Origin: Escherichia phage nepoznato
Sequence record: NC_052658.1
DNA: 64,000 bases
Strand: one strand, 5' to 3'
In this document: positions 8,648-64,000 of the stretch, piece by piece
Numbering within the stretch: the stretch's first letter is position 1
Layout: each line of letters opens with the position of its first letter
Made by a program: the position numbers and the translations under genes
Notes under the pieces: model-generated
What the model saw: only the letters and a program-made list of their open reading frames with translations
The model's database searches: none
Told to the model about the DNA's origin: nothing

Positions 8648-8828
8648 AACAGTAGAAGAAGCCGTAAAAGCAGCTTATGAGGCTTTAGCGGAAGCAGAGC
8701 AGTTAGCAGATGAGACTGGTAAAGGTTTCCGTTTCTCCCCTGAATATGGGATGGGTGGTTATTATGATCCAGAAGACGAAAATGAGAACACTGGAACAAA
8801 TTGGCATCCATCTTCTTTAAGTTGTTAA
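8631..8828 (+). CDS. hypothetical protein
   Basis: 65-aa ORF with RBS GGAGAGGAG. Confidence 0.4.
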   Translation: MTTKFKTVEEAVKAAYEALAEAEQLADETGKGFRFSPEYGMGGYYDPEDENENTGTNWHPSSLSC

Positions 8829-9109: not shown

Positions 9110-9327
9110 TGAGTGATCGTAATGTTGAAGAATTAACTGAAAAAGCCCAAGCTATTATGGCTTTAGTGGACGAACTTACAAAAGAAGCTGAAGATGCTGG
9201 TTTTGGTCTTAGTTTAGAAAATGACGCAATCTGTTTTGAAGATTGGCAATCCTCTTCTTGTTATGGTGAAGGTGATGATGGTTTCGTCGTTAATTCTCAA
9301 GGCGTTTGGCACAGTAGTAGCTGTTAA
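9109..9327 (+). CDS. hypothetical acidic protein
   Basis: Track ORF 9067-9327; start moved to ATG after GAGGAG. Confidence 0.4.
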   Translation: MSDRNVEELTEKAQAIMALVDELTKEAEDAGFGLSLENDAICFEDWQSSSCYGEGDDGFVVNSQGVWHSSSC

Positions 9328-33292: not shown

Positions 33293-33661
33293 TTACTTTG
33301 TGCTGTTGTAAACGTTATCGCGTTCAACCATCACCGCAAGGCGGATCAGTTGATCAGTTGTATCGCGTAAATTGTCGGGCCATGTTTTACTGTTCCAGCT
33401 ATCCAGGTTTGATTGTATATAGGTTTCAATGGCTTGATCCATATTATCAAACAAGTTTTCCTCCAGGCTCTCGGCTGTTTCACACTGGAAAGCATTAGCG
33501 ACACTATTAATCAATAAGCAAGCCAGTAAATCAGCGTTGCGCCAATTTTTACGGATAGTTTCATCTGTCAGATAACCAACGAGATTAACCTTTGCGCCAG
33601 TGGTGGACGTTGCGATCACTTCTTGCGCTTTTTCAACTGCTTTAATTGCTGATTTGCTCAT
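33293..33661 (-). CDS. hypothetical protein (cassette 1 ORF)
   Basis: Track ORF 33293-33739 runs into the promoter; start moved to ATG (MSKSAIK) after RBS AAAGAGG. Confidence 0.5.
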   Translation of the reverse strand: MSKSAIKAVEKAQEVIATSTTGAKVNLVGYLTDETIRKNWRNADLLACLLINSVANAFQCETAESLEENLFDNMDQAIETYIQSNLDSWNSKTWPDNLRDTTDQLIRLAVMVERDNVYNSTK

Positions 33662-33677
33662 CTTCTTTTCCTCTTTG

Positions 33678-33739
33678 TGGGCTTGCTGTATTGCTCGCCC
33701 TACGTGATAAATAATAATATAAGGGTGATCCCGTGTCAA
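33678..33739 (-). promoter_or_regulatory. PeSL-like early promoter with weak leader hairpin (unit 1)
   Basis: Minus strand TTGACA, 17 bp, TATTAT, TATCACGTAGG, weak GC hairpin, RBS. Confidence 0.5.
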
Positions 33740-33877
33740 TAGGTAGAATTGTAAAGATTTGATAGTTTATCTCTTTGATGCTTTGTTGTTTGATAGATGT
33801 TAGCTATCAATATATAGCGGGGTCGTCCGGTGATTATCTTCCCTGTTTCCAGTGCCGCCCGTTCAATAAGCATAACA

Positions 33878-33905
33878 AAAAACAGGACAAAAACAAGCCC
33901 TGTTT
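33878..33905 (-). terminator. probable intrinsic terminator (minus strand)
   Basis: ACAGG...CCUGU hairpin followed by U-run on minus strand. Confidence 0.35.
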
Positions 33906-33913
33906 TGTAAAGA

Positions 33914-34117
33914 TTAGATGATCTGCATATCTTCCACGATAATTTCTAATTTCCAAACAAGATGATCTAAGCTCCCTGATAAAAATGATTCCGATACATA
34001 ACCGCCATCGGACACCGTAGCAAGGATCTCGCCATTTGCTTGCTCTTTGATTTGAACATCCAGGCGGTTAGCCTTTGCTTTGTTCAGGACGGCGATCAGG
34101 CGGTTAGCTGTAGTCAT
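33914..34117 (-). CDS. hypothetical protein (cassette 2 ORF)
   Basis: Start moved to internal ATG (MTTANRL) 20 nt after leader hairpin. Confidence 0.5.
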   Translation of the reverse strand: MTTANRLIAVLNKAKANRLDVQIKEQANGEILATVSDGGYVSESFLSGSLDHLVWKLEIIVEDMQII

Positions 34118-34140
34118 GATGTTTCTCTCTTCTGTTGTGA

Positions 34141-34197
34141 GCGGCACTATTGCCGCCCTACGTGATAAACTTTACTACCTGTTGCGCCTGCTGTCAA
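34141..34197 (-). promoter_or_regulatory. PeSL-like early promoter with leader stem-loop (unit 2)
   Basis: Minus strand TTGACA, 17 bp, TAAAGT, TATCACGTAGG, GCGGCA-AUAG-UGCCGC. Confidence 0.6.
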
Positions 34198-34198
34198 A

Positions 34199-34303
34199 CT
34201 ATTTTTTCTTTGCTTCCATTCGTCTAAGGTTACGGCTTGACTTGTTACGCAAGGCGCTCAAATCATCATAACCTTTAAAAGGTTGCATATTGTTCGGATT
34301 CAT
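34199..34303 (-). CDS. small basic protein (about 34 aa)
   Basis: Minus ORF MNPNNMQPFKGYDDL... with RBS AAGGGG; stop abuts -35 of unit 2; approximate. Confidence 0.3.
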   Translation of the reverse strand: MNPNNMQPFKGYDDLSALRNKSSRNLRRMEAKKK

Positions 34304-34313
34304 GCTACGCCCC

Positions 34314-34592
34314 TTAACGGTTATAAACGTCGTGAATAGTGATAAAGGCGCTACGACCATAAGCCGCCAAATCGGGATTGATCCAAGTGTTATCTAACAG
34401 TGTTTCAAGGACGATAGAATCATCATGAATAGCATCATAGAAATCAGGATGTATGATCGTTTCAATATCGTCCGGTGTTAGTTCCCAATTAAGGTTGCAA
34501 ACCGCTAAAACGTCTACCAATAACTTCCAATCTTGCAAATTAGTGGTTAATACTGTTTTCATTTCTTCGGTAGTGAGTTTAACGATGGTCAT
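34314..34592 (-). CDS. hypothetical acidic protein (cassette 3 ORF)
   Basis: 92-aa ORF about 20 nt after leader hairpin. Confidence 0.5.
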   Translation of the reverse strand: MTIVKLTTEEMKTVLTTNLQDWKLLVDVLAVCNLNWELTPDDIETIIHPDFYDAIHDDSIVLETLLDNTWINPDLAAYGRSAFITIHDVYNR

Positions 34593-34612
34593 GATATTTT
34601 CTCTTTTTGATG

Positions 34613-34673
34613 AGGCGGAAAGTGTTCCCGCTCTCGATGTGAAACATTATACAACACTAAAAACTGATTGCAA
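34613..34673 (-). promoter_or_regulatory. PeSL-like early promoter with leader stem-loop (unit 3)
   Basis: Minus strand TTGCAA, 16 bp, TATAAT, TTTCACATCGAGA, GCGGGAA..TTCCGCC hairpin. Confidence 0.55.
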
Positions 34674-34683
34674 GTGTTTTTAA

Positions 34684-35013
34684 TTATCGCTTGCTATTCT
34701 CTTTCTCTACTTCCCCGATAGCATCGCAAAATTGATTGATAACATCAGGGTGAACGTCAATAGCGTCAAACAATCCGCTATTAGTTGCATTTTGTAAAGC
34801 AATAGACAATTCAGCCAGGGCGTTCAATTGTTTTACACGGAATTGATCGCGGATTGAATCCATATATTCCATCACTGCACTTTCCAGTGTTTCCCATGTA
34901 GTCGCTGCACCTTCGCCTACAGTTACATCCCACAAATTAGACTCGATTTGAGTCAGTACTACAGTTGGGCGACCAGCAACAACACTGCGGGCTAATTCGA
35001 TTTCATTAAACAT
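34684..35013 (-). CDS. hypothetical protein (cassette 4 ORF)
   Basis: 109-aa ORF. Confidence 0.5.
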   Translation of the reverse strand: MFNEIELARSVVAGRPTVVLTQIESNLWDVTVGEGAATTWETLESAVMEYMDSIRDQFRVKQLNALAELSIALQNATNSGLFDAIDVHPDVINQFCDAIGEVEKENSKR

Positions 35014-35020
35014 TTTATTT

Positions 35021-35079
35021 TCCTCTTTGTGGGGAGAACTATTCTCCCCTTCATGTAAAACAGTCTACAGGTTTATTTC
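35021..35079 (-). promoter_or_regulatory. PeSL-like early promoter with leader stem-loop (unit 4)
   Basis: Minus strand TTGACA, 16 bp, TAGACT, TTTTACATGAA, GGGGAGAA-UAG-UUCUCCCC. Confidence 0.6.
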
Positions 35080-35089
35080 TCAATGTCAA

Positions 35090-35269
35090 CTATTTATTAT
35101 CGGGATTGTAAGCCAGGACCGCGCCACTTGCTTTCACCGCCCCAGCCTCATAGCTGCGTAAATCTTCCTCGGTGATATTCATTGCGATCACTTCCTCGAC
35201 CTCTACGCCAGTAGCAAGGGCGATCTCTTTGATGATATTTGATGTTTTGATAATGTCGATAGTTTTCAT
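35090..35269 (-). CDS. hypothetical protein
   Basis: Track ORF 35090-35317; start moved to ATG (MKTIDIIK) after AAGGGG. Confidence 0.45.
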   Translation of the reverse strand: MKTIDIIKTSNIIKEIALATGVEVEEVIAMNITEEDLRSYEAGAVKASGAVLAYNPDNK

Positions 35270-35279
35270 AGTAAGCCCC

Positions 35280-35399
35280 TTACAGAAGAATAGCCGCGAT
35301 GGTTGAAATGAAAGCAATAACAGCGACGATGATCATCATGTTTTTACCTTCGGTTACTGCTACGTTTTCGGTGCTGTATTCTACGGTATATTTGCTCAT
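35280..35399 (-). CDS. small tail-anchored membrane peptide (about 39 aa; cassette 5 ORF)
   Basis: MSKYTVEYSTENVAVTEGKNMMIIVAVIAFISTIAAILL; first ORF after unit 5 leader. Confidence 0.4.
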   Translation of the reverse strand: MSKYTVEYSTENVAVTEGKNMMIIVAVIAFISTIAAILL

Positions 35400-35415
35400 C
35401 TTTCTACCCTCGTTT

Positions 35416-35475
35416 GTGGTTGGCTGTTGTCGCCGCCCTATGTATTTAATATACACTACCACGGCAGCATTGCAA
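35416..35475 (-). promoter_or_regulatory. PeSL-like early promoter with weak leader hairpin (unit 5)
   Basis: Minus strand TTGCAA, 16 bp, TATATT, TACATAGG, GC-rich leader. Confidence 0.5.
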
Positions 35476-35488
35476 GTTTATTTTGCAA

Positions 35489-35779
35489 TTATTTTTCTTC
35501 TGTAAAAAGCCCATCATTAACAACGGCGGCGATGATTTCACGGGCCATTGATTCGGGAAACGGTAGGCTATAATCCTGGCTTGTTTCATCTTCGCAAGAT
35601 ACCCAATGATAAGCTAATGAATAATACCCCTTAGAAACGGTTTTCAGGCTAACAATGATCACGGTGTTTTGTTCGTTGGTAAACGTCGCCGTGATGGTCT
35701 GGTCGTTTTGCACCATATCCATCAAACGGGCGTTATCATTTACCAGGGAAAACATTAGCACGGTGTTAGCTTTACTCAT
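35489..35779 (-). CDS. hypothetical protein (cassette 6 ORF)
   Basis: Start moved to ATG (MSKANTV) 20 nt after leader hairpin. Confidence 0.5.
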   Translation of the reverse strand: MSKANTVLMFSLVNDNARLMDMVQNDQTITATFTNEQNTVIIVSLKTVSKGYYSLAYHWVSCEDETSQDYSLPFPESMAREIIAAVVNDGLFTEEK

Positions 35780-35799
35780 GATTGCATCCTCAAAGGGGC

Positions 35800-35854
35800 G
35801 CGGCACCATTGCCGCCCTACACGATAACTATAACACAATGTAAAACAGGATCAA
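35800..35854 (-). promoter_or_regulatory. PeSL-like early promoter with leader stem-loop (unit 6)
   Basis: Minus strand TTGATC, 16 bp, TATAGT, ATCGTGTAGG, GCGGCA-AUGG-UGCCGC. Confidence 0.55.
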
Positions 35855-36057
35855 CCTTTATTTTTCCACGGTGTCAGCTTGTTAATCATTGGTGATAAAT
35901 AGCGTTTACCAACGTAAAACAGTACGCCAACTGATGCAACGGCGGCGACCTCATGCATAGCCGACGGGAAACGGGTATCATAATAAGATCCAATAATAGC
36001 GATAGCGGCAACGGCTGCAACGTCGATAATGATTTTTTCTTGTTTTGCGGTGATCAT
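35851..36057 (-). CDS. small membrane protein (cassette 7 ORF)
   Basis: 68 aa with hydrophobic AAVAAIAIIGS and VAAVASVGVLFYVG segments. Confidence 0.5.
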   Translation of the reverse strand: MITAKQEKIIIDVAAVAAIAIIGSYYDTRFPSAMHEVAAVASVGVLFYVGKRYLSPMINKLTPWKNKG

Positions 36058-36079
36058 AATATTTACCTTTTTGTATGGT

Positions 36080-36136
36080 GGGGAACTATTCCCCGCCTGA
36101 TGTAATACAGTTTAACAGGTCCGGTTATGGTGTCAA
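36080..36136 (-). promoter_or_regulatory. PeSL-like early promoter with leader stem-loop (unit 7)
   Basis: Minus strand TTGACA, 16 bp, TAAACT, TATTACATCAGGC, GGGGAA-UAG-UUCCCC. Confidence 0.6.
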
Positions 36137-36142
36137 CCGTTT

Positions 36143-36328
36143 TTAAAGATATTTTATGCTAATAACGTTTTCCGGTTTAACCTTGTTATAATGTGCATCA
36201 ACATAGATCAAACCATCGTCAGAAAAGCCCAGGATCACGCCCTGCGCAATAAAACCGTATTCGTCACGGTAACGCACGGCTATTTTTAATGTTGCGCTGT
36301 ACGCTGTTTTAAGCTCGTTTAAAGTCAT
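36143..36328 (-). CDS. hypothetical protein
   Basis: 61-aa ORF after a terminator-like hairpin and RBS GAGGAT. Confidence 0.45.
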   Translation of the reverse strand: MTLNELKTAYSATLKIAVRYRDEYGFIAQGVILGFSDDGLIYVDAHYNKVKPENVISIKYL

Positions 36329-36357
36329 TTTTGTTTATCCTCTACATGTAAAAAGAA

Positions 36358-36381
36358 AGGGCGCTTGGTGCGCCCTTGTTA
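36358..36381 (-). terminator. intrinsic terminator or attenuator inside the array
   Basis: On minus strand AAGGGCGCACCAAGCGCCCUU then UUCUUUUU; near-identical to 33272 hairpin. Confidence 0.5.
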
Positions 36382-36383
36382 TG

Positions 36384-36530
36384 TTAATCCTCTAAATCCA
36401 TCCAATTATATTTGTCACTCTTCCCGCGCTTTGTTTTATTACGCTTGTCGCCTTTGCGGATCACTTCCTCGTTCCAGGCCTTGCGGATCTTGGAAGATTG
36501 AATTTTTTCTGCGCGATTAGATGTATTCAT
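36384..36530 (-). CDS. small basic protein (about 48 aa; cassette 8 ORF)
   Basis: MNTSNRAEKIQSSKIRKAWNEEV...; RBS AAGAGGAAAC; below track cutoff. Confidence 0.4.
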   Translation of the reverse strand: MNTSNRAEKIQSSKIRKAWNEEVIRKGDKRNKTKRGKSDKYNWMDLED

Positions 36531-36550
36531 TTTGTTTCCTCTTCATATGA

Positions 36551-36603
36551 GCGGCACCATTGCCGCTATATTGTTAATTTAAACTGTTTTGTAAAATTGT
36601 CAA
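36551..36603 (-). promoter_or_regulatory. PeSL-like early promoter with leader stem-loop (unit 8)
   Basis: Minus strand TTGACA, 16 bp, TAAATT, GCGGCA-AUGG-UGCCGC. Confidence 0.55.
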
Positions 36604-36609
36604 GGTTTA

Positions 36610-36960
36610 TCATTCATAAGAGCAAGCAAGGATCACGCCTGCAATATAAAGCCAATAATTTTCCCTTTCTCGTTGGATTTTATCATCGCGGCTATTCTCT
36701 TTAATGTATCCCCAGGATGTTAACAGGCGATCAATTTCCCAATATTCGAAAGCGATATTGATATCTGATGGCAAACCTTGTAACCAACTTGCCAGGGCGC
36801 GGACTATTGATCCGTTATATCGTTTTTGATTATCAGGGTACCAGTACTCTGATTCAAAGCGGCGCATCAGTTCGGCTATCTTCTCTTTTTCGCCAGTGAT
36901 GCCATAGTCGATTGATGCTAGGATGTAACCTTTAATTTCGTTTTGTGCTTTCATGGTCAA
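36610..36960 (-). CDS. hypothetical protein
   Basis: 116-aa ORF immediately downstream of 36967-37188 (co-transcribed). Confidence 0.5.
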   Translation of the reverse strand: MTMKAQNEIKGYILASIDYGITGEKEKIAELMRRFESEYWYPDNQKRYNGSIVRALASWLQGLPSDINIAFEYWEIDRLLTSWGYIKENSRDDKIQRERENYWLYIAGVILACSYE

Positions 36961-36966
36961 TCTCTC

Positions 36967-37188
36967 TTATTTACTTACAACCAGTTGATAACCGTTTTCT
37001 ACATTGCTAAACACTGTTAGCCCGTCGTCGCGCTCACTCATCAACAAGCAAGGCGATAACATGCGTTCGGCAGCTTTACACTCATTATAAGCGGCAGTGA
37101 TGTCTCCTGCTGCCTTGTCTTCTGTAGTAAATGTCTCGTTTACGTAAACCTGACCAGCAACAACGGCGACAATAGCAAAAGTAATCAT
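36967..37188 (-). CDS. hypothetical protein (cassette 9 ORF)
   Basis: 73-aa ORF with N-terminal hydrophobic segment. Confidence 0.5.
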   Translation of the reverse strand: MITFAIVAVVAGQVYVNETFTTEDKAAGDITAAYNECKAAERMLSPCLLMSERDDGLTVFSNVENGYQLVVSK

Positions 37189-37221
37189 GATGTTTCCTTG
37201 TTAATAGTGGTTTCTCTTCTC

Positions 37222-37259
37222 TATAGCGCCCATTATAAAGCGCTATAACGAAAAGTCAA
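37222..37259 (-). promoter_or_regulatory. sigma70 promoter with -10 inside an 8-bp-arm palindrome (operator-like; unit 9)
   Basis: Minus strand TTGACT, 16 bp, TATAAT; TATAGCGC-N10-GCGCTATA inverted repeat spans the -10. Confidence 0.55.
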
Positions 37260-37262
37260 CGA

Positions 37263-37430
37263 TTATTTTTTAAGGCTTAAAGTACCTAACTTGTCAGCAT
37301 GACGCAGACCAGGGAAGATCCATTTGCCTGATTCATCTTTTACCGGAGCTTTAAGCGTAGCGCCCAGGTTGGCGGCGTTAACTTTACGTGCAACGTTGCG
37401 AGCGGCTTCACGGGTAGCGCAAGTGATCAT
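37263..37430 (-). CDS. small protein (about 55 aa; cassette 10 ORF)
   Basis: MITCATREAARNVARKVNAANLG...; 20 nt after unit 10 hairpin; below track cutoff. Confidence 0.35.
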   Translation of the reverse strand: MITCATREAARNVARKVNAANLGATLKAPVKDESGKWIFPGLRHADKLGTLSLKK

Positions 37431-37454
37431 GATGTTTTCCTCTTCTCTTTGTTA

Positions 37455-37516
37455 GGCGGTGGACCATTCCGCCGCCTTGATGTAATACAGTTTACTCTTT
37501 TTCTTTCCGGTGTCAA
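37455..37516 (-). promoter_or_regulatory. PeSL-like early promoter with leader stem-loop (unit 10)
   Basis: Minus strand TTGACA, 16 bp, TAAACT, TATTACATCAAGG, 9-bp stem with G-U wobble and AUGG loop. Confidence 0.6.
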
Positions 37517-37526
37517 CAATCTTTTT

Positions 37527-37754
37527 TCAGATTAATTCATCCAGGCATAACAGGCGATCAACGTTGAGATCGGTTAGGCTGATGGTTGGCACCTGGTAGG
37601 ATTCGATGTACTCAACGCTCGACCATTGCCCGAAGTTAGCGACCGCCCAGCTATTCAAGGAAGAGTGAAGATCATCCCCTTTCTTCTCGGTGATAACTGC
37701 TACTACCTGGGAAGTGCCAACGGTGCCGGATACGCGAACAATATTGATAGCCAT
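37527..37754 (-). CDS. hypothetical protein (cassette 11 ORF)
   Basis: 75-aa ORF 20 nt after leader hairpin. Confidence 0.5.
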   Translation of the reverse strand: MAINIVRVSGTVGTSQVVAVITEKKGDDLHSSLNSWAVANFGQWSSVEYIESYQVPTISLTDLNVDRLLCLDELI

Positions 37755-37777
37755 GATTTTTCTCTCTTCTGTTAGGC

Positions 37778-37832
37778 GGGGCGCTTGTCGCCCCTATGTG
37801 ATACATCTTACACTAATTTTAAACGTTGTCAA
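37778..37832 (-). promoter_or_regulatory. PeSL-like early promoter with leader stem-loop (unit 11)
   Basis: Minus strand TTGACA, 16 bp, TAAGAT, TATCACATAGG, GGGCGACAAGCGCCCC hairpin. Confidence 0.6.
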
Positions 37833-37927
37833 ATTATTTTCTATTTCTTCCGTAATAGCCCAATTTATGATCTAAGCTAAAACGTTTTGTTAGATAGGTA
37901 GAACGATGTTTCATTTTTATATCTCCT

Positions 37928-38167
37928 TTACATTCCAACCATCGCGGCGCGGATCGCTGTAGTGCTATACTTGAAACCGTCTGGAGTTTTATCTTGTCCA
38001 GTTTGTTCCAGGAATAACATCATATCACGGGCAGCATCATTACGATTAGTATTAGCGGCGATAAATTCTTTCGCCAACCGATATAACGATTCATCGTTAT
38101 TAATCCAAAGGCTTACATTCCAATGAGTTTTATTTTTGTGACCTAAGAACATTTTTGATTTAGCCAT
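37928..38167 (-). CDS. hypothetical protein (cassette 12 ORF)
   Basis: 79-aa ORF. Confidence 0.5.
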   Translation of the reverse strand: MAKSKMFLGHKNKTHWNVSLWINNDESLYRLAKEFIAANTNRNDAARDMMLFLEQTGQDKTPDGFKYSTTAIRAAMVGM

Positions 38168-38192
38168 GATGTTAATCTCTTTTTTCAGTGAG

Positions 38193-38251
38193 GCGGGAAG
38201 TGTTCCCGCTCTCTATGTAATACAGTTTACTCTTTTTATTCGTGCTGTCAA
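38193..38251 (-). promoter_or_regulatory. PeSL-like early promoter with leader stem-loop (unit 12)
   Basis: Minus strand TTGACA, 16 bp, TAAACT, TATTACATAGAGA, GCGGGAA-CAC-UUCCCGC. Confidence 0.6.
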
Positions 38252-38257
38252 TGCTTT

Positions 38258-38623
38258 TTATAAATCTTTTTTACGTTTAACATCGCTCGCATGACTGTAT
38301 ACAGTGATCCCATTATCACGGCAAAAACGGGAAAGATACGCGCCGCGTGAAAACTCTTTACCTTCCATATTAATAACCTTGCTAAATTCTTCCAGGGCGA
38401 CGGTATCAAAATGATCACCATAACCATATTGAAACGGAACGTTAACCACCTCGATCAGTTTACCGCCGATCTCAACGTCAACCATTAAAGAAAAATATGT
38501 ATTACCGTAGGACTGTTGAAACCAACGACGGGCGCTAATATGCACCGCCTCAATGCTGGATAGTTCAATTTTAGCCGTGTCAGCCAGGGTAGCATAAGAG
38601 GAAACATTAATATTAATAGCCAT
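38258..38623 (-). CDS. hypothetical protein (cassette 13 ORF)
   Basis: 121-aa ORF. Confidence 0.5.
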   Translation of the reverse strand: MAININVSSYATLADTAKIELSSIEAVHISARRWFQQSYGNTYFSLMVDVEIGGKLIEVVNVPFQYGYGDHFDTVALEEFSKVINMEGKEFSRGAYLSRFCRDNGITVYSHASDVKRKKDL

Positions 38624-38645
38624 GATGATAACCTTTTTATTGTTG

Positions 38646-38701
38646 GCGGCACCATTGCCGCCCTACGTGATAAACTATAACAGAATTTTAAACAATGTCA
38701 A
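38646..38701 (-). promoter_or_regulatory. PeSL-like early promoter with leader stem-loop (unit 13)
   Basis: Minus strand TTGACA, 16 bp, TATAGT, TATCACGTAGG, GCGGCA-AUGG-UGCCGC. Confidence 0.6.
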
Positions 38702-38711
38702 ACGTTTTTTC

Positions 38712-38957
38712 TTAGTTTGCGAAATATGGCGCGGCGGCTGATGCCGTTAAGCTCCAAGTGATTTGACTATCGATCAAGTATTCTTCATTCTTGATCCGCA
38801 CGGTATCAATCGAGAAGTTACTAAAAGGTTTACTTTTAATTTTACGAACAACCGTTACACGACGGTTATTTTTCATCTCTTTTAACTGAATCCAGGCGAA
38901 ACCTTTTTCATTAACGAAAATTTCATTGTGGTTAGTGATAGATGATAAGTGTTTCAT
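38712..38957 (-). CDS. hypothetical protein (cassette 14 ORF)
   Basis: Start moved to ATG (MKHLSSI); the track N-terminus YHVGRR is just the translated leader. Confidence 0.5.
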   Translation of the reverse strand: MKHLSSITNHNEIFVNEKGFAWIQLKEMKNNRRVTVVRKIKSKPFSNFSIDTVRIKNEEYLIDSQITWSLTASAAAPYFAN

Positions 38958-38980
38958 GATTTTTCTCTCTTCTGTTTTGA

Positions 38981-39040
38981 GCGGTGGACCATTCCGCCGC
39001 CCTACGTGATACATATTACTACTTTTTCAAACGTTGTCAA
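38981..39040 (-). promoter_or_regulatory. PeSL-like early promoter with leader stem-loop (unit 14)
   Basis: Minus strand TTGACA, 16 bp, TAATAT, TATCACGTAGG, 8-bp stem with AUGG loop. Confidence 0.6.
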
Positions 39041-39049
39041 CAATCTTTT

Positions 39050-39331
39050 TCAACTATATGATCCGCACCGTTCGCAATAGTGATCTTCTTCCTCTTCCAC
39101 TACTTGACCGACAAAATGATCAACCTTTGATTTCAGGCTTTTATAATTACTTTCTACTTCCTGTAGTCGTCGTTGGTAGTATTCCAGGGCTTGCACATAT
39201 GCCGCTTGTTCTGTTTTAGCTTGCATCGCTAAATTCATGCCGCGCGTGTCATCATACAACCAATAACCATCATTGCATTCACTGATTGACAGTGTGGGGC
39301 TTAGTTTTTCGTGACGGATAACCTTGCTCAT
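39050..39331 (-). CDS. hypothetical protein with C-terminal Cys pair
   Basis: Track ORF 39050-39364; probable start MSKVIRHEKL; ends CERCGSYS. Confidence 0.45.
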   Translation of the reverse strand: MSKVIRHEKLSPTLSISECNDGYWLYDDTRGMNLAMQAKTEQAAYVQALEYYQRRLQEVESNYKSLKSKVDHFVGQVVEEEEDHYCERCGSYS

Positions 39332-39341
39332 AGTGTGCGCC

Positions 39342-39446
39342 TTATAGAATGATTGAAACAACAATTGCTACAGTGATCCACACTGGAACGGCTAACAAAA
39401 TAGCGTTAATCGTTCCAACCGTCAAGCTATTTCCTTTATTAATCAT
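39342..39446 (-). CDS. small membrane peptide (about 34 aa; cassette 15 ORF)
   Basis: MINKGNSLTVGTINAILLAVPVWITVAIVVSIIL; RBS AAGAGG; approximate. Confidence 0.35.
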   Translation of the reverse strand: MINKGNSLTVGTINAILLAVPVWITVAIVVSIIL

Positions 39447-39475
39447 TGTAAGCCTCTTGCATAATTTCACTATGA

Positions 39476-39532
39476 GCGGCACCATTGCCGCCCTACGTGG
39501 TAAATATTATGCCAGTGGCGGCGATATGTCAA
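39476..39532 (-). promoter_or_regulatory. PeSL-like early promoter with leader stem-loop (unit 15)
   Basis: Minus strand TTGACA, 17 bp, TAATAT, TACCACGTAGG, GCGGCA-AUGG-UGCCGC; 42-bp core identical to unit 18. Confidence 0.6.
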
Positions 39533-40086
39533 AGACTATTTTCAAAGTTTTCTAGGGCGATCCTTTTTTCTTCCTCTGTCGGCTGATAATCAGGAAAAGC
39601 ATCAGCACACAACAACGGCGGGATCTCTTCGTACTCTTCCTCTTCCGTTGTCTCCTCGTCTTCCTCCTGGGCTATGGCTGCAATTTTGGCTAATTTTCTT
39701 TCAGCTTGAATCAATTTACCATCAAGTACGTTTTTTGCCATGTTGTAAGCGGTCCAGGTGATGCGCTTACTTTCCAGGGCCTGATCGAGCGCCGCTATCT
39801 TGCTGGGGTATTCATCCAGGACACGAAAAGCCGGATCAACTTTGTACAAAGGATTATCTTTCGCGCCGTCGCTCGCATCTTCCGCACTGGATAAATCAGC
39901 GTTACCATTTGCCAGCCAGCCAGGGCGCACATAACGCGCTTTTATGTTGCCGTTACTACGTGCTAACCTGTTACCTATTTGCTCACCGCTATATCCCGTG
40001 GATTCATCGATAAGATGATCGGGAATGATGCGCGGATCATCTGCTTCATGTTTTACCCAAGACTGGATCACATATTCGCGGCCCAT
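39529..40086 (-). CDS. hypothetical protein with acidic C-terminal region
   Basis: Start moved to ATG (MGREYV) after AGGTGG; co-transcribed with 40088-40345. Confidence 0.5.
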   Translation of the reverse strand: MGREYVIQSWVKHEADDPRIIPDHLIDESTGYSGEQIGNRLARSNGNIKARYVRPGWLANGNADLSSAEDASDGAKDNPLYKVDPAFRVLDEYPSKIAALDQALESKRITWTAYNMAKNVLDGKLIQAERKLAKIAAIAQEEDEETTEEEEYEEIPPLLCADAFPDYQPTEEEKRIALENFENSL

Positions 40087-40087
40087 A

Positions 40088-40345
40088 TTAACCACCTTTT
40101 TTCAACAATCGGCATACTTTAAAAAGACTTGCTGAATCCTTGCAAGGGTAGAAAGATGTACGATAATCACGTACGCCAACCTTGCGGATCTCGATGTTTT
40201 CGCATGTTGTTTGATCAAAGATATTTATTTCATCACGCCCCCTTATATAAACATAGTGGGGATGTATTAACGCATATTTTGCTAATCTGTAAAAAGCGTT
40301 ATCTTTGAACGCGATCACGTGACCTTTTAATTTGATGTAAAACAT
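40088..40345 (-). CDS. hypothetical protein (cassette 16 ORF)
   Basis: 85-aa ORF after RBS AAGGTGG. Confidence 0.5.
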   Translation of the reverse strand: MFYIKLKGHVIAFKDNAFYRLAKYALIHPHYVYIRGRDEINIFDQTTCENIEIRKVGVRDYRTSFYPCKDSASLFKVCRLLKKGG

Positions 40346-40363
40346 TCTACCACCTTACAAATA

Positions 40364-40418
40364 GCGGGAACTATTCCCGCTTTATGTAACATATTAACAA
40401 ATTAGTCGTTAATGTCAA
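40364..40418 (-). promoter_or_regulatory. PeSL-like early promoter with leader stem-loop (unit 16)
   Basis: Minus strand TTGACA, 16 bp, TAATAT, TTACATAAA, GCGGGAA-UAG-UUCCCGC. Confidence 0.6.
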
Positions 40419-40421
40419 GCC

Positions 40422-40694
40422 TTAAAGCAAAAACGCTACATCTTGCGCTTTTAATGTAGTGTCAACCATTTTTGGGCTTTTATAATCAACAAAACGCGCG
40501 GTTTTTTCAATAGCAAAACCGAGATAATCTTGTTTATTGAATTTACATTCTTTCTTAAATGTTTCCCGCGCCACGGTGATCGCTGCGTCCAGGGATAAAC
40601 GCCCGTCAATGTTGATATTTGCGAAAGATCCGCCACCGCTCATAGGTTTACCAGTGGTGCCAGCTACGATCATTGTTGCGCTATATGATGCCAT
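40422..40694 (-). CDS. hypothetical protein (cassette 17 ORF)
   Basis: Start moved to ATG (MASYSATMIV). Confidence 0.5.
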   Translation of the reverse strand: MASYSATMIVAGTTGKPMSGGGSFANINIDGRLSLDAAITVARETFKKECKFNKQDYLGFAIEKTARFVDYKSPKMVDTTLKAQDVAFLL

Positions 40695-40719
40695 GATTAT
40701 AATCTCTCTTCTGTTGTGA

Positions 40720-40780
40720 GCGGCTGAACCATTCCGCCGCCCTATGTGATACATCTTATCAGGTTGTTGGTTGTTGTCAA
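40720..40780 (-). promoter_or_regulatory. PeSL-like early promoter with leader stem-loop (unit 17)
   Basis: Minus strand TTGACA, 16 bp, TAAGAT, TATCACATAGG, 8-bp stem with AUGG loop. Confidence 0.6.
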
Positions 40781-58604: not shown

Positions 58605-59546
58605 TGTAGAAGTTTCTTGTCATACTATGCAACAGAGCAAGGAGAAAAATATGATGGACGATTCAACCTTGGAGTAGTTTCTATCAACTTGCCTCTGATT
58701 GCTGCGGAAGCGAGAAGTAAAGGAGAATCTTTCACCGATCTTCTTAATAAACATATGGAGATAGCCTACGATGCTCACATGCTACGTGTAAACCGTATCA
58801 GACATACCAAAGCATCTGAAAACCCTATTCTTTTCATGGAAGGGGCTTTAGCGCGTTTAAATGCCAATGATGAAATTGGTGTTTTGTTTGAAGGTGGTTA
58901 TGCTTCTATTAGTATTGGTTATGTAGGTCTTGCCGAAGCTTTGGAAATCCTTTATCCAGAAGAAAAAGATAAAAAGGAACTTGGTAAAAACATTCTGCAA
59001 CATATGAAAGATGTGTGTGCTGTGTTTAAAGAGCGATCTAAGCTGGCATTTAGTCTCTATGGAACTCCAGCAGAATCTTTGTGCTATAAGTTTGCAACAG
59101 CTTTAAATGAAAAATACCCAGGTTTGGTAGAAAGAGACTATCTTACTAACTCTTTTCATCAACCTGTATGGTTGGTAACAAATCCTTTTGAAAAATGGGA
59201 TTATGAAGCAGGTTTTGCACAGATTAGTAATGGTGGTAACATAAGTTATGTCGAAACACCAAACTTAAAGAATAACTTAGAAGCTTTGGAGACTTTAGTA
59301 GACTACGCTTATGAACATATTCACTATTTTGGTATTAATCAGCCCGTGGATCAATGCTTTAAGTGTGGTTTTCATGGAGAATTTAAGGCAACGGCTAAAG
59401 GGTTTGAGTGTCCTGATTGTGGCAACCATGAAGAAGAAACTATTTCTGTAGTTAGACGTGTATCAGGGTATCTTTCTGCTCCTAATTCACGGCCTTATAA
59501 CAAAGGTAAAATGCAGGAAGTTTTGCAAAGGGAGAAACATCTTTGA
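58605..59546 (+). CDS. nrdD: anaerobic ribonucleoside-triphosphate reductase NrdD, exon 2
   Basis: CRSFLS...NLGVV.INLP, TPAE.LCY.F, Zn-site CFKCG...CPDCG and glycyl-radical motif RVSGYL; joined product about 604 aa. Confidence 0.85.
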   Translation, partial: CRSFLSYYATEQGEKYDGRFNLGVVSINLPLIAAEARSKGESFTDLLNKHMEIAYDAHMLRVNRIRHTKASENPILFMEGALARLNANDEIGVLFEGGYASISIGYVGLAEALEILYPEEKDKKELGKNILQHMKDVCAVFKERSKLAFSLYGTPAESLCYKFATALNEKYPGLVERDYLTNSFHQPVWLVTNPFEKWDYEAGFAQISNGGNISYVETPNLKNNLEALETLVDYAYEHIHYFGINQPVDQCFKCGFHGEFKATAKGFECPDCGNHEEETISVVRRVSGYLSAPNSRPYNKGKMQEVLQREKHL

Positions 59547-60013
59547 ATTTTGCAGGATATGAACCTGTAGATCTTATTAATGGTGAGGGAGTTAGGTGCT
59601 CCCTCTGGGTTAGTGGTTGTAGCCACGGTTGTCGTGGCTGTTTTAACCAGAAAGCCTGGTCTTATTCTTACGGGGAACCGTTTACTCACGAAAATGTAGA
59701 GCAAGTTTTAAAAGATTTGTCAAGACCGTTTGTAAAAGGTTTAACAATTTTAGGAGGAGAACCATTAGATCCGCAGAATATTTACAATGTTAAAAGCCTT
59801 ATAGAAAAGGTTAGAGACGTTTATGGGTCAAGCAAAGATATAATGGTGTATACAGGATATACTTTTGAGGAAGTGCCTTTATATATTAAAAATCTTGTTG
59901 ACATTATTGTAGACGGAAAGTATGAAATAAACAATCCAACTACAAAACCTTTCAGAGGGTCAGATAATCAAAGATTATGGACCAAAACGGCAAGTGGTTG
60001 GCAATCAGATTAA
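59543..60013 (+). CDS. nrdG: anaerobic RNR activating protein NrdG (radical SAM)
   Basis: Cys cluster CSLWVSGCSHGCRGC near N-terminus; directly downstream of nrdD. Confidence 0.85.
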   Translation: MNFAGYEPVDLINGEGVRCSLWVSGCSHGCRGCFNQKAWSYSYGEPFTHENVEQVLKDLSRPFVKGLTILGGEPLDPQNIYNVKSLIEKVRDVYGSSKDIMVYTGYTFEEVPLYIKNLVDIIVDGKYEINNPTTKPFRGSDNQRLWTKTASGWQSD

Positions 60014-60015
60014 CT

Positions 60016-60218
60016 TAGGAGGTTTCATGGTTACATATTTTGCTGTAGGAGATAGAGTAGGGACGGCAGGAGAACTGTTGAAGAACAGTGATCGGGACGT
60101 TAAGGAGATTCTTGCAACCCTTGTGGATATTTTACAAAGAAAAGAGTTGCTTTCTGATCGAGATGTTGCTAAATTACTTGATATCGGAGGAGATGAACTT
60201 CAAAGACTTCCATTTTAA
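60016..60218 (+). CDS. hypothetical protein
   Basis: Track ORF 59994-60218; probable start MVTYFAV after GGAGG. Confidence 0.4.
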
Positions 60219-60233
60219 GTGAGGAGATAAGTA

Positions 60234-60839
60234 ATGCAACATAGTGTAGTAGTCAACATGCCGAATAGTGGGGATAAATCTTTTGGTGTCCCTGCTAAAA
60301 AAGTGTGGAAAGCCCATTTTCATCTTACTTTATCTAACGTTAGTTCTGAAGAGTTGATGAAAGCAGCTAAGATTATTGGTGCCAAATGCACAACAATTGA
60401 TTTACATCGGGATACAAAGTCTCAACGTGATCGTATGTTAACAAAGTATCAAAGCGATCTCGACACTACTTTAATGTTGCAGTGTGTAGAAAAACTTGAG
60501 AATGCAGGTTTCAATGTTGTTCGTTACAAACTGGAACGAATGTTTAAACATGTTGCCTGTGTTCTTTTCATGGATCTAAGTAAAGAAAATTATGGAGAAG
60601 TTCACATTAAGACTTCAGCAAGTGATCCCGAAGTAGAAACAAACTTCTTCCGTATTTCTTCTAATGCTGAAGAAATTGATTACCGATTTTATAATGCTCG
60701 CTTATATTCCGCAGAAGATAAGTTGCGTTTCAATGAAGCGTATGATATGCTCTTGAACAGTGGGATACAGATAAAAGGCTACCACATAGAACAAGTGGTA
60801 GTGGACAGTAATCTTAACTTAGACGCATGGTGGGCTTAA
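60234..60839 (+). CDS. hypothetical protein (one H-x-T-x motif; weak 2H-phosphoesterase resemblance)
   Basis: 201 aa with FHLTL near residue 28; second motif not evident. Confidence 0.45.
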   Translation: MQHSVVVNMPNSGDKSFGVPAKKVWKAHFHLTLSNVSSEELMKAAKIIGAKCTTIDLHRDTKSQRDRMLTKYQSDLDTTLMLQCVEKLENAGFNVVRYKLERMFKHVACVLFMDLSKENYGEVHIKTSASDPEVETNFFRISSNAEEIDYRFYNARLYSAEDKLRFNEAYDMLLNSGIQIKGYHIEQVVVDSNLNLDAWWA

Positions 60840-60840
60840 T

Positions 60841-61497
60841 ATGACTATTAAACATATCTCTTTTGATGTATGGAACACACTGATCACAGCAAACTCCAAT
60901 TACGCAGACATGCGAGCCTGGACTATCGCAAAATATGGAGATATTACGGAAGTGGAAGCAAGAGCAGCTTATAAGAAGATCAAAAAGGAACTGGATAATG
61001 CAGCACTTCAAGGCAAAGCCGAGTGTGCAGCATACGCCTGGGAAAGACTTGGTTCTGAACTTGGGATAACACCTTGGAAGTCTGCAAAGCTTCGTTTCGA
61101 GTGTGAACAGTGGTTCCTTAAGTTTCCACCACACGTAGCCGTGGATCTGCCGATGTACTTGCTGTATCTTTCGGGACGTTATGATTTGAGTATTAAGAGC
61201 AATACCAACTTTATATCAGGGGATATCCTGCGTCGTGCTTGTAAGTTTGATAGTTGGAATTGTTTTGAGTTCACCCATTTCTCGGATGAAGCTTTACTTT
61301 GTAAACCAGATCCGCGATTCTTTGCTCGCACGCTCACATATTCTCCGATCCCTCTGTTAGGGCACGAAGTATTGCACGTAGGCGATAGTGAAGAATATGA
61401 TGGAAAATGTGTTGACTTAGGATTTAACTTCTGTCATATTAAGAACCCTAACGACTTACTAGAGAAACTTAAAAGAGGAGAAATTGTAAATGCGTAA
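60841..61497 (+). CDS. HAD-superfamily hydrolase-like protein
   Basis: Motif I-like FDVWNTL near N-terminus and motif IV-like HVGDSEEYD. Confidence 0.5.
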   Translation: MTIKHISFDVWNTLITANSNYADMRAWTIAKYGDITEVEARAAYKKIKKELDNAALQGKAECAAYAWERLGSELGITPWKSAKLRFECEQWFLKFPPHVAVDLPMYLLYLSGRYDLSIKSNTNFISGDILRRACKFDSWNCFEFTHFSDEALLCKPDPRFFARTLTYSPIPLLGHEVLHVGDSEEYDGKCVDLGFNFCHIKNPNDLLEKLKRGEIVNA

Positions 61498-62317
61498 TCA
61501 AACTCAAATTTTTGCAAATAAATTTGATGACCTGGAAACTGCTACTTTTGATATCCAAGATTATTCAAAATTGAAATTTGGTAGTAACCAAGCCGCGCGT
61601 CGTATGGGTAAAGAATTGGCACTTCAGTTTTTTGCTCAAGTGGCAATGAAACATATTGGGGAACAATTTGTTATCATTCCTTCTCCTTACAACCATGTGC
61701 ATAATGCTGCAACAATGATGACAGATCATTTTATTAATTACTTTAACATGTTGCAATCACAATATAATCAAGGTCGTTCAGCAGAACTGGACATTATTCA
61801 TCGTAAAGTTAGCTATATCAACGATTATGGTTTCTTGGATAAAGCTAGTCGTAAGAAACTTATTGATGGGGATACATTCTACTGCAACAAAGAATTCTGG
61901 GGTGATAAGAAGCTTGTATTCATTGATGATGTAAATATCACTGGAACGCATGAAGACAAACTGATTGAGATTCTTGATGAAAATCAAGTTAAAAATGATG
62001 TTTACTTCCTGTATTTTGCAAAATATGAAGGTAATCAAGCAGATACCGAAGCTAAACTGAATTTTAACTACATTAATACACCAGAAGCGTTTGTTAAAAT
62101 GATTAATGAAGAACGTGATGCACAGTGTCTTGTTCGTCCTATTAAATATCTTATGGGCCAAAATCATGAAGACTTCAAAATCATTCTTAGCCAATTGCCA
62201 CACTACTATGTAGAGCAACTTTTCTTCGGCTGTTTAGCTGAAGGCTACAATCGAATTGCAAAGTATACTGAAAACTTTGAATTCTTGGATCGTTACACAA
62301 AACAACACATTCTGTAA
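61490..62317 (+). CDS. phosphoribosyltransferase-fold protein
   Basis: PRPP-binding-loop-like KKLVFIDDVNITGTHEDK. Confidence 0.5.
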   Translation: MRNQTQIFANKFDDLETATFDIQDYSKLKFGSNQAARRMGKELALQFFAQVAMKHIGEQFVIIPSPYNHVHNAATMMTDHFINYFNMLQSQYNQGRSAELDIIHRKVSYINDYGFLDKASRKKLIDGDTFYCNKEFWGDKKLVFIDDVNITGTHEDKLIEILDENQVKNDVYFLYFAKYEGNQADTEAKLNFNYINTPEAFVKMINEERDAQCLVRPIKYLMGQNHEDFKIILSQLPHYYVEQLFFGCLAEGYNRIAKYTENFEFLDRYTKQHIL

Positions 62318-62331
62318 TAAGGAGCTAAAAA

Positions 62332-62805
62332 ATGCTTAAAATGAAAACAGGTAATCTTATTGATGCCGCTAAAGCAGGTGAAGTAACTGTTATTGCTCAT
62401 TGTTGCAATTGTATGTGTAATATGGGGGCAGGAATTGCTCCGCAAATTAAACGAGCATTCCCTTATGCATATGCGGCGGATTTAGACACAATGGCTGGTG
62501 ATCAGAGTAAGTTAGGTTCTTTTAGTTTAGGGGTGCCAGACGAACAATCAGACCCTTTGGTATATAATCTATACGGGCAATACCGTTACGGATATAATGC
62601 TAAAGGTCGTCAGTTGGACTATGATGCCCTATACGATGCACTAATAGCTATGGCTAATGATTTGCTTCTCCGTGACCAAAAATGTAAGATCGGTTTACCT
62701 ATGATTGGAGCGGGACATGCCGGAGGTAATTGGGCTATCATCCAAGTGATGATTGAAGAAACTTTAGTAAAAACAGGTCACGATGTGACTATTTATAAAC
62801 TTTAA
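62332..62805 (+). CDS. macro-domain protein (ADP-ribose binding/processing)
   Basis: VIAHCCNCMCNMGAGIA and IGLPMIGAGHAGG glycine-rich loops typical of macro domains; 157 aa. Confidence 0.55.
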   Translation: MLKMKTGNLIDAAKAGEVTVIAHCCNCMCNMGAGIAPQIKRAFPYAYAADLDTMAGDQSKLGSFSLGVPDEQSDPLVYNLYGQYRYGYNAKGRQLDYDALYDALIAMANDLLLRDQKCKIGLPMIGAGHAGGNWAIIQVMIEETLVKTGHDVTIYKL

Positions 62806-62817
62806 GAGGAGATTAGT

Positions 62818-63039
62818 ATGGGTGTTTTTGCAGGTATTGTTGCAGTGGTAAGCTTTTTTGTTATTGCTTTTATGCTTAGTTTGATTCCAGCTTGGTTACT
62901 GTTGCTGGCTTACAACTATGTTGCTGAAGTTATGGGTCATGCAGATATCACTGTCCCAGTAACCTTCTGGACCGTGGTTTGTGTTTCGTTTATTCTGGCT
63001 GTATTACGAGGAATCTTTTCCTCTCATTCAACAAAATAA
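62818..63039 (+). CDS. small membrane protein (two TM segments)
   Basis: 73 aa, hydrophobic. Confidence 0.45.
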   Translation: MGVFAGIVAVVSFFVIAFMLSLIPAWLLLLAYNYVAEVMGHADITVPVTFWTVVCVSFILAVLRGIFSSHSTK

Positions 63040-63042
63040 GTG

Positions 63043-63101
63043 TTGACATAGTTCTTAAAAAGAGTAAGATATATCACATGAAGCGGGGAATAGTTCCCCG
63101 C
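63043..63101 (+). promoter_or_regulatory. PeSL-like early promoter with leader stem-loop (plus strand)
   Basis: TTGACA, 16 bp, TAAGAT, TATCACATGAA, GCGGGGAA-UAG-UUCCCCGC, RBS GAGAGGAG, ATG. Confidence 0.6.
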
Positions 63102-63118
63102 AAAGAGAGGAGAAAAGA

Positions 63119-64000
63119 ATGCAACTCGGTTTCCCAATTATTGATGTAGTTGTTTTAGTTGGTATTTTGGCATTGTCTATTGGTATCGATTTCTTTGGTC
63201 ATAAAGAGAATAAAGAAATTGGAATTAAATCTGCTTTGCTTTGGTCTATTTTTTGGATTGCTTTAGCTTTAGGATATTACGCATTCATTTGGGTAGAACA
63301 TGGTAAAGAGTTTGCCGCGCTTTTCCTAAGTGGCTATGTGTTGGAAAAGAGTCTTTCTGTAGATAACCTGATGGTGTTCATGGCAATTTTTGCAAGCTTT
63401 GGAATTAAGAGCACACATCTCCAACATAAGATTTTACTTTGGGGGATTGCAGGAGCCATTGTCTTCCGAGGTATTTTTGTTGCAGCAGGCACCGCTTTGT
63501 TTAACCTTCATTGGTCGGTACAAGTGTTGTTCGGTTTGATTGTAGCTTGGTCTGCCGTAGCTATCATCAAAGGTGGTGACGAAGAAGAGGATATTGATTA
63601 CTCTAAGCATTGGGCTGTTCGTTTAGTAGGTAAAGTTCTGCCTGTGCACAATGCACTGGATGGTGAAAAGTTCATTACCATTAAGAATGGTATTAAATAT
63701 GCAACTCCTGCTCTTCTTTGTGTGTTTGTTATTGAGCTTACAGATATTGTCTTCTCTTTTGATTCAGTTCCGGCTGTGATCGGTGTGACACAAGAACCTC
63801 TGCTGGTTTATTCTGCAATGCTGATGGCTGTTCTTGGTTTACGTGCGCTTTTCTTTGTGTTAAGTGTAGCTGTGAAATATCTGGTTCACTTAGAGAAAGC
63901 TGTTGCTGTGGTTCTGGTGTTTGTTGGTGTTAAACTTATGTATCACCCGTTCGGTGAAACACTTCATGCCAAGTGGTCATTCCTCCCGCATGATATTTCC
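63119..64000 (+). CDS. TerC-family integral membrane protein (3' end outside window)
   Basis: Open frame of 294 codons to window end; multiple TM segments; TerC motifs LSVDN and FSFDSVPAV. Confidence 0.7.
   Translation, partial: MQLGFPIIDVVVLVGILALSIGIDFFGHKENKEIGIKSALLWSIFWIALALGYYAFIWVEHGKEFAALFLSGYVLEKSLSVDNLMVFMAIFASFGIKSTHLQHKILLWGIAGAIVFRGIFVAAGTALFNLHWSVQVLFGLIVAWSAVAIIKGGDEEEDIDYSKHWAVRLVGKVLPVHNALDGEKFITIKNGIKYATPALLCVFVIELTDIVFSFDSVPAVIGVTQEPLLVYSAMLMAVLGLRALFFVLSVAVKYLVHLEKAVAVVLVFVGVKLMYHPFGETLHAKWSFLPHDIS

Follow-up and report, generated by a model that had tools for sequence, protein, structure and literature searches.

A putative self-contained terC cassette within the Ter gene island of a phAPEC8-like coliphage

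The last gene of the window, by which we mean the whole 64,000-nt stretch of phage DNA analysed here, is a terC gene that appears to form a self-contained cassette, and its product may well be the membrane component of a phage Ter module that changes cation flux and envelope state and protects the infected cell. We give this reading a probability of roughly 55%. The window derives from a Phapecoctavirus (Stephanstirmvirinae), a phAPEC8-like, non-jumbo coliphage of about 148 kb. Over bases 60000-64000 its nucleotide identity amounts to 98.5% with EF1-1 and to 97% with phAPEC8, and at least 80% of this stretch is covered by 69 phage records. In phAPEC8 the same gene is annotated as ‘integral membrane protein TerC’ (phAPEC8_00214, AFU62785.1), with the same flanking genes and the same annotated upstream promoter, and orthologs are known from both Phapecoctavirus and Justusliebigvirus, an example being phi92 gp182. 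Public annotation thus already covers terC, the TerC family assignment and the promoter, and sets of Ter genes in phages have been described in print before. The leader hairpin of terC carries no annotation in the public phAPEC8 and ortholog records; otherwise nothing substantive sets these apart from the window. Added here are the placement of the protein in the ter-operon branch of TerC, its membership in a phage Ter island that is conserved, and the description of terC as an apparently monocistronic cassette of promoter, hairpin and terminator. The cassette takes up the final 958 bases of the window, and its elements there are the following.

63043..63070, plus strand: sigma-70-type promoter, predicted from the consensus, with -35 TTGACA at 63043-63048, a 16-nt spacer and -10 TAAGAT at 63065-63070
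63083..63101, plus strand: leader hairpin GCGGGGAA-TAG-TTCCCCGC, a perfect 8-bp GC-rich stem with a 3-nt loop, dG -14.6 kcal/mol
63108-63112, plus strand: Shine-Dalgarno sequence AGGAG, within GAGGAG at 63107-63112, read from the sequence, 6 nt upstream of the ATG
63119..64000, plus strand: terC coding sequence, incomplete at the window end (codons 1-294 of 324); encodes the whole Pfam TerC domain and all but the last of the 9 predicted transmembrane helices

The reading frame that opens with the ATG at 63119 contains no stop up to the last base at 64000, giving 294 codons. In relatives of 97-98.5% nucleotide identity terC is a 975-nt gene for a protein of 324 aa, its stop codon lying 93 nt outside the window; because these near-identical relatives carry the complete gene, the copy in the window is taken to be free of truncation. 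The TerC proteins of phAPEC8 and EF1-1 are identical to each other, and the window protein differs from that of EF1-1 at two positions across the 294 visible residues. The product matched Pfam TerC (PF03741) with E=1e-40 and 139.8 bits against a cut-off of 27.8, over profile positions 2-177 of 178, as well as the NCBIfam model TIGR03718 ‘TerC/Alx family metal homeostasis membrane protein’ with 302 bits against the curated cut-off of 246.4, and phrog_7180 among the PHROGs (E=2e-89). Judged by its sequence, it is a full-length, intact TerC-family integral membrane protein. The preliminary description had assigned the last gene to the TerC/Alx-type integral membrane proteins and had proposed a profile search together with completion of the gene from beyond the window; the former agrees with the assignment, and in the latter no close relative shows a premature stop immediately beyond the window end. 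The start it had chosen for this region, 63043, proved to be exactly the first base of the -35 TTGACA.

Nine hydrophobic segments are predicted in the phage protein, the last of which (residues 297-315) lies past the window and was therefore taken from the relatives, and an AF2 model likewise consists of nine long helices (pLDDT 79.6). A Foldseek comparison of this model with PDB and BFVD gave no match at E<=0.001, which is an uninformative result, and a sequence search for solved structures of phage TerC found none. That BFVD gave no match is surprising, phage TerC proteins being publicly available. On the minus strand beneath terC there is no plausible gene, the open reading frames there being at most 58 aa long and without support.

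The promoter of this cassette corresponds to a site that is annotated in phAPEC8 as ‘putative host dependent promoter determined with MEME’. Its -10 box is followed by the stretch ATATCACATGAA, which leads up to the leader hairpin. The hairpin begins 12 nt past the -10 box and about 5-7 nt past the predicted transcription start, in a leader of about 42 nt, and the folding z-score of the 60-nt terC leader against shuffles is -2.56. In phi92 the orthologous hairpin, GCGGAGGA-TTG-TCCTCCGC, keeps the stem with two compensatory pair changes. Because the stems vary between copies of the unit yet the pairing stays, and because the changes in phi92 are compensatory, the hairpin can be regarded as a selected structure. 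Two roles considered for it were rejected: that of an intrinsic terminator as its main function, since no T-tract follows it on either strand, and that of an RNase III site, since the stems of these hairpins measure just 6-9 bp. A terminator-like hairpin of a different make, GAGCCTCC-TTCG-GGAGGCT followed by ATTTTAT, is located 6 nt past the terC stop in the near-identical relatives. With a promoter of its own and this terminator-like hairpin, terC appears to be monocistronic.

The phage protein was compared with the two kinds of bacterial TerC that are relevant to its role. With E. coli Alx it shares the TIGR03718 profile, a similar length (324 vs 321 aa), the nine-helix layout and five export-critical acidic residues. 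Its residues E76, D82, E206, D209 and D215 align with Alx E86, D92, E213, D216 and D222, each of which is needed for Mn2+ export according to mutagenesis (PMC10197570), and all five are invariant in a 32-sequence alignment. Identity to Alx of the K-12 host is nevertheless 33%, as compared to 48-52%, over 92-99% of the length, for the TerC proteins of plasmid terZABCDE operons and 52-55% for bacterial TerC proteins flanked by TerD, TerF, TerB, the TerY-PP2C-kinase triad, ATPgrasp_Ter and PRTase_2. By pairwise identity, the sole basis of this placement, phage TerC thus belongs to the ter-operon branch, to which it is nearer than to Alx. The TerC of terZABCDE(F) tellurite-resistance operons, whether plasmid-borne or chromosomal, shows the same family profile and the same acidic residues. 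TerD is encoded in the operon as well as in the phage set, as are a vWA protein of the TerF type and a PRTase/HAD-type module. The phage set differs in having PRTase_3 in place of PRTase_2 and in the addition of TelA, and its terC is carried in a phage promoter-hairpin cassette, whereas the terZABCDE(F) operon is induced by metals.

These comparisons bear directly on a simpler explanation, namely that terC encodes a stand-alone, Alx-like Mn2+ exporter that needs none of its neighbours and through which cytoplasmic Mn2+ is brought down, or metal pools are otherwise altered, soon after infection. The annotation of E. coli Alx names it a Mn2+ exporter, the phage protein scores above the TIGR03718 cut-off and retains 5/5 of the Alx export residues, and an apparently monocistronic gene with its own promoter and terminator-like hairpin would suit a protein acting by itself. 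We nevertheless consider this explanation rather unlikely. The phage protein is closer to ter-operon TerC than to Alx, and its leader, short and with a simple hairpin, is unlike that of Alx, which is controlled by a yybP-ykoY riboswitch. No such Mn2+ sensor was found for terC: no Rfam family reached the gathering score in the window, and a permissive Rfam scan of 62700-63300 returned chance-level matches only. Moreover, nothing in the window suggests that the phage needs Mn export, and linkage of terC with TelA, TerD, a TerF-type vWA protein and the HAD-PRTase_3 pair recurs in independent phage lineages. The metal (Mn) export proposed earlier for this gene is retained in part: the family profile and the Alx residues are in line with it, whereas the idea of a protein acting alone is incomplete, the gene being a TerC of the ter-operon branch situated in a phage Ter island.

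Upstream of the terC cassette, four genes of this region are located within the window.

60841..61497, plus strand: HAD-superfamily hydrolase, 218 aa, weak HAD profile matches, phrog_14393
61490..62317, plus strand: PRTase_3, a ComF-like phosphoribosyltransferase, 275 aa, PF15610 with E=2.3e-41
62332..62805, plus strand: Macro-domain protein, 157 aa, PF01661 with E=8e-5, weak DarG-like match, phrog_335
62818..63039, plus strand: hydrophobic small protein, 73 aa, directly upstream of the terC unit, phrog_16065, of unknown function

The reading frame of the 73-aa protein ends with TAA at 63037-63039, 3 nt ahead of the -35 box of terC. The genes for TelA, the TerF-type vWA protein and TerD lie beyond the window and were seen in relatives only. 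In EF1-1, terC is followed downstream by genes for a SprT-like protein, TelA (PF05816, E=3e-33) and a vWA-TerF-like protein (PF10138, E=2e-37), and TerD (PF02342, E=8e-28) is encoded about 6 kb downstream of terC. Scanning of the island open reading frames detected no TerZ/A/B/E, ATPgrasp_Ter, PRTase_2/TRSP, StiP or HpcH aldolase.

A similar gene set was found in other phages. PRTase_3 homologs reside mostly on phage-sized contigs. On 3/3 distant phage-like contigs a HAD gene directly precedes PRTase_3, and 2/3 of these also carry TerC, TelA, vWA-TerF and TerD, while the remaining HAD-PRTase_3 pair lacks Ter genes in the surrounding +/-8 kb. The two contigs with Ter genes, both metagenomic, phage-sized and unrelated, contain a tight operon of TelA, vWA-TerF, two unknowns, TerC, a small gene, HAD, PRTase_3 and TerD. 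The same Ter-island genes, rearranged, are present in phi92 and in Klebsiella phage FBKp34, and in Cronobacter (GAP52), Vibrio and Brevundimonas phages TerC is paired with TerD, TerZ, TerB or TelA. From this conserved linkage we infer that terC, although separated from TelA and TerD by other genes, functions together with them. The HAD hydrolase is a probable partner of the PRTase in this Ter-associated module; whether the Macro-domain protein forms part of the Ter set is uncertain. A relationship of PRTase_3 and HAD to PRTase_2 and the neighbouring hydrolase of plasmid ter operons was considered and rejected, there being no significant similarity. On these comparisons, the phage proteins and their ter-operon counterparts represent different families in analogous slots, and the phage island is, by its gene content, an abbreviated Ter variant and not a canonical ter operon.

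The Ter stress-response system as a whole, the terZABCDEF/TelA network, was reportedly set out by Anantharaman in 2012. Phage Ter systems were later proposed by Iyer, Anantharaman, Krishnan, Burroughs and Aravind (2021) to act against superinfecting phages (PMC7824862). The systems treated there have PRTase, HAD, TerC, TerF-type vWA, TelA and TerD in common with the present island, and the role proposed is the same. That work focused on jumbo phages and mentioned ‘certain other related smaller tailed phages’ in passing (PMC7824862); unlike its main subjects, the present terC belongs to a coliphage of non-jumbo size and is placed in a promoter-hairpin cassette of its own.

According to the mechanism that we favour, host sigma-70 RNA polymerase would start near 63076-63078 and transcribe terC from the onset of infection, a timing read from the promoter consensus alone. 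The leader hairpin, close to the 5' terminus of the transcript, would mainly stabilise it and might also damp read-through from upstream. In E. coli, 5'-terminal stem-loops shield mRNAs from 5'-end-dependent decay. TerC would then act as a nine-helix inner-membrane protein that moves or handles divalent cations and, together with TelA, TerD and the vWA protein, would alter the envelope state of the infected cell. A cell altered in this way could resist superinfecting phages, colicins or envelope stress through the latent period. The protective role is proposed by analogy, because bacterial ter operons give phage-inhibition and colicin-resistance phenotypes: insertions in bacterial terC, terD or terZ abolish both phage inhibition and colicin resistance, and deletion of terC in K. 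pneumoniae leads to larger plaques and to sensitivity to Zn/Mn (PMC12054061). Literature searches returned no experiments on any phage TerC and no transcriptomics on Phapecoctavirus terC.

Since bacterial Ter systems restrict phages (PMC12054061), the phage set might alternatively be directed against the host. It would then neutralise or pre-empt membrane-depolarising abortive-infection effectors, or the Ter response of the host, instead of excluding other phages. The island does contain the Macro-domain protein with its weak DarG-like match, and other auxiliary genes surround it. The case is circumstantial, though, and names no specific known target, and we regard such a counter-defence as quite improbable.

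A different biochemical role is suggested by reports that TerC proteins metalate exoenzymes and interact with SecYEG (PMC10550928, PMC12096827). Like MeeF/MeeY of B. subtilis, phage TerC could supply secreted or periplasmic enzymes, of the phage or of the host, with Mn2+ or another metal during Sec export, and in several phages a gene for an endolysin or cell-wall hydrolase is indeed found near the Ter genes. This closeness to lysis genes may be coincidence, no candidate for a metal-dependent exported phage enzyme was found, and the YkoY subfamily model scored 64.8 bits with phage TerC, far under its cut-off of 138.5. A metalation helper of this kind therefore has little chance of being the right description, and we return to TerC as the membrane component of a protective Ter module.

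This reading can be extended, more tentatively and with the odds clearly against every part of it holding, to the entire gene set. TelA, the TerF-type vWA protein, TerC, HAD, PRTase_3 and TerD would form a compact, phage-specific Ter module of Stephanstirmvirinae and several unrelated lineages, one that would produce a nucleoside-like signal and remodel the inner membrane along with its cation flux so that superinfecting phages or colicins are kept out; terC would be an independently promoted early cassette of this module, exchangeable between genera. If true, this would amount to superinfection exclusion at the level of the membrane, borrowed by viruses from bacterial anti-phage defence. By itself the terC finding has little weight, the gene, the promoter and phage Ter systems being already on record. 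A coliphage of this size that grows on E. coli K-12 would nonetheless be a convenient system in which to study the roles of TerC, TelA, TerD and PRTase/HAD, and the same question of roles stands for the bacterial ter operon.

The promoter-hairpin arrangement in front of terC is not unique in the window. The pattern TTGACA-N15-19-TANNNT occurs 37 times, compared with 6.3 occurrences expected from shuffles, and 0/100 shuffles reached 37. Thirteen of these occurrences are assembled in one array.

33655..40780, minus strand: array of 13 homologous promoter-hairpin-SD units, head-to-tail, each before a small open reading frame of about 55-120 aa

The 13 array units and the terC site have in common a spacer of 16-17 nt, a conserved GTATCACATAG-like box straight after the -10 element, a GC-rich hairpin whose stem measures 6-9 bp and whose loop is in many cases AATAG or AATGG, and a purine-rich ribosome-binding site. 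The 14 units were compared by individual folds, the MAFFT alignment not being structure-aware at the hairpin. For all of them (14/14) the hairpin segment folded with a dG of -11.3 kcal/mol or lower, a value reached by 5.8% of random 45-nt windows of this DNA. The design of promoter plus leader hairpin is thus common to terC and the cassette array, as the preliminary description had proposed. These units are an undescribed regulatory motif in this phage group, which belongs more to the array than to terC.

The name given to the terC promoter in that description, ‘PeSL-type’, fits only in part. PeSL (promoter-early stem-loop) cassettes were described by Arbiol (2010) and Comeau (2014). In T4-type phages, PeSLs consist of a strong sigma-70-like promoter joined to a stem-loop that acts as a terminator (PMC2839356, PMC4122927); the stem-loop is mostly situated between or over the -35/-10 boxes (PMC2839356), and the cassettes lie beside ORFan genes and bring about modular shuffling (PMC2839356, PMC4122927). 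The 14 units described here resemble them in the combination of a sigma-70-like promoter, a stable stem-loop and a Shine-Dalgarno sequence, repeated before small open reading frames in a plastic region, and to this extent the earlier name is apt. It fails with regard to the T4-type lineage, the hairpin position and the T-tract of a terminator. The hairpin lies in the transcribed leader, in most units 10-12 nt past the -10 box, and is not followed by a T-tract; the carrier belongs to the Stephanstirmvirinae and not to the T4-type phages, and its units are not homologous in sequence to the T4-type motifs (RB49/phi1/nt-1/PST). The phage units can accordingly be called PeSL analogues, not members of this class, and the resemblance is only an analogy.

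Exchange of the cassette content between phages could be followed in phage tuntematon, whose sequence on either side of terC, promoter and hairpin included, matches that of the window and of EF1-1 with 98-100% identity. The body of its terC, from about +70 nt to the stop, shows in contrast about 70% identity to the window terC and about 90% to that of phi92. The left junction of this swap falls in the stretch that runs from the leader to about +100 nt in the coding sequence, and the right junction is at the terminator hairpin. As far as the aligned sequences tell, a terC allele was swapped cleanly between genera, with the exchange ending at the terminator hairpin. As evidence for PeSL-like shuffling this is suggestive only, the crossover not being localisable to the leader hairpin.

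A small cassette of its own that is swapped between genera might also be expected of a dispensable passenger, a terC without selected function in the phage. Such an explanation seems to us very improbable indeed. TerC homologs were found in 173 phage records from several families, with a coverage of at least 80% in every one, and the catalytic-type residues are invariant. Comparison of the phage terC alleles gave dN/dS values of 0.04-0.18, which, on this measure, place phage TerC under strong purifying selection.

Within the window, the gene terC appears to be a hotspot of allele replacement. The stretches compared were:

window 63190-64000, within terC
L012 1501-2475, terC of phage tuntematon
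L010 9001-9978, terC of phage phi92

Both terC flanks of tuntematon, including the promoter and its hairpin, were 98-100% identical to those of the window. The terC body of tuntematon shared about 70% nucleotide and 73% amino acid identity with the window gene, and about 90% nucleotide and 95% amino acid identity with terC of phi92, a phage of another genus. The right-hand junction of the tuntematon swap was found at the terminator hairpin located 3' of the stop codon.

When the TerC model (ma5e7d0f0c74e) was searched with Foldseek against PDB and BFVD, no significant match was obtained; BFVD stayed blank although public databases contain phage TerC proteins. The cause is either that no protein with the TerC fold has a solved structure and BFVD holds no such clusters, or that the search performed weakly on this all-helical membrane model.

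EF1-1 and the window showed a single divergent patch compared with phAPEC8 (79-89% identity; 96-100% in the surrounding region):

L002 (EF1-1) 8790-9146, patch diverging from phAPEC8 (L001)
window about 62790-63146, the same patch

The patch spans an ORF for a hydrophobic protein of 73 aa and extends over the spacer of the promoter, the loop of the hairpin and the Shine-Dalgarno region. Thus, the 73-aa ORF and the regulatory unit form a separate mosaic segment. In the promoter units at 33655-40780 on the minus strand, the hairpin loops were recurrently AATAG or AATGG, and a box GTATCAC(A/G)TAG was present 5' of the stem. Since sequence is kept beyond the needs of pairing, this suggests a protein-binding or processing site and not a mere stabilising structure.

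Another gene near terC is:

62332-62805, 157-aa stand-alone Macro-domain protein; its gene is situated between those for PRTase_3 and TerC

Its match to the ADP-ribosyl glycohydrolase model of the DarG antitoxin was weak (36 bits, far under the cut-off). The gene may serve counter-defence, by opposing DarT or by processing ADP-ribose, rather than belong to the Ter set. In Cronobacter phage GAP52, the genes 5' of terC, separated from it by one small ORF (L005 5238-7756), encode ribose-phosphate pyrophosphokinase-like and nicotinamide phosphoribosyltransferase-like proteins, which resemble a phage NAD+-reconstitution pair; thus, the PRPP-using enzymes beside terC differ between phages. The Ter gene that comes last, be it TerD, TerZ or TelA, directly adjoins the gene for an endolysin or cell-wall hydrolase in three lineages of phages:

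EF1-1, L009 10148-11371
GAP52, L005 10082-11226
FBKp34 (Klebsiella phage), L011 14621-16271

This adjacency may be due to chance or may be a sign that the Ter module is tied to lysis or envelope control.

Apart from the Ter region, the anaerobic ribonucleotide reductase gene nrdD of the window is in two pieces (span 56962-59546), and the gap of about 730 nt between them contains a homing endonuclease ORF:

56962-57843, nrdD piece 1, NRDD model positions 1-263
57943-58452, HNH/I-HmuI-type homing endonuclease, 169 aa
58575-59546, nrdD piece 2, NRDD model positions 263-562 and glycyl-radical domain

No Rfam match to a group I intron reached the gathering score. Unlike in the window, nrdD is unbroken (604 aa) in EF1-1 and phAPEC8; that of phi92 is annotated as a 'spliced variant'.
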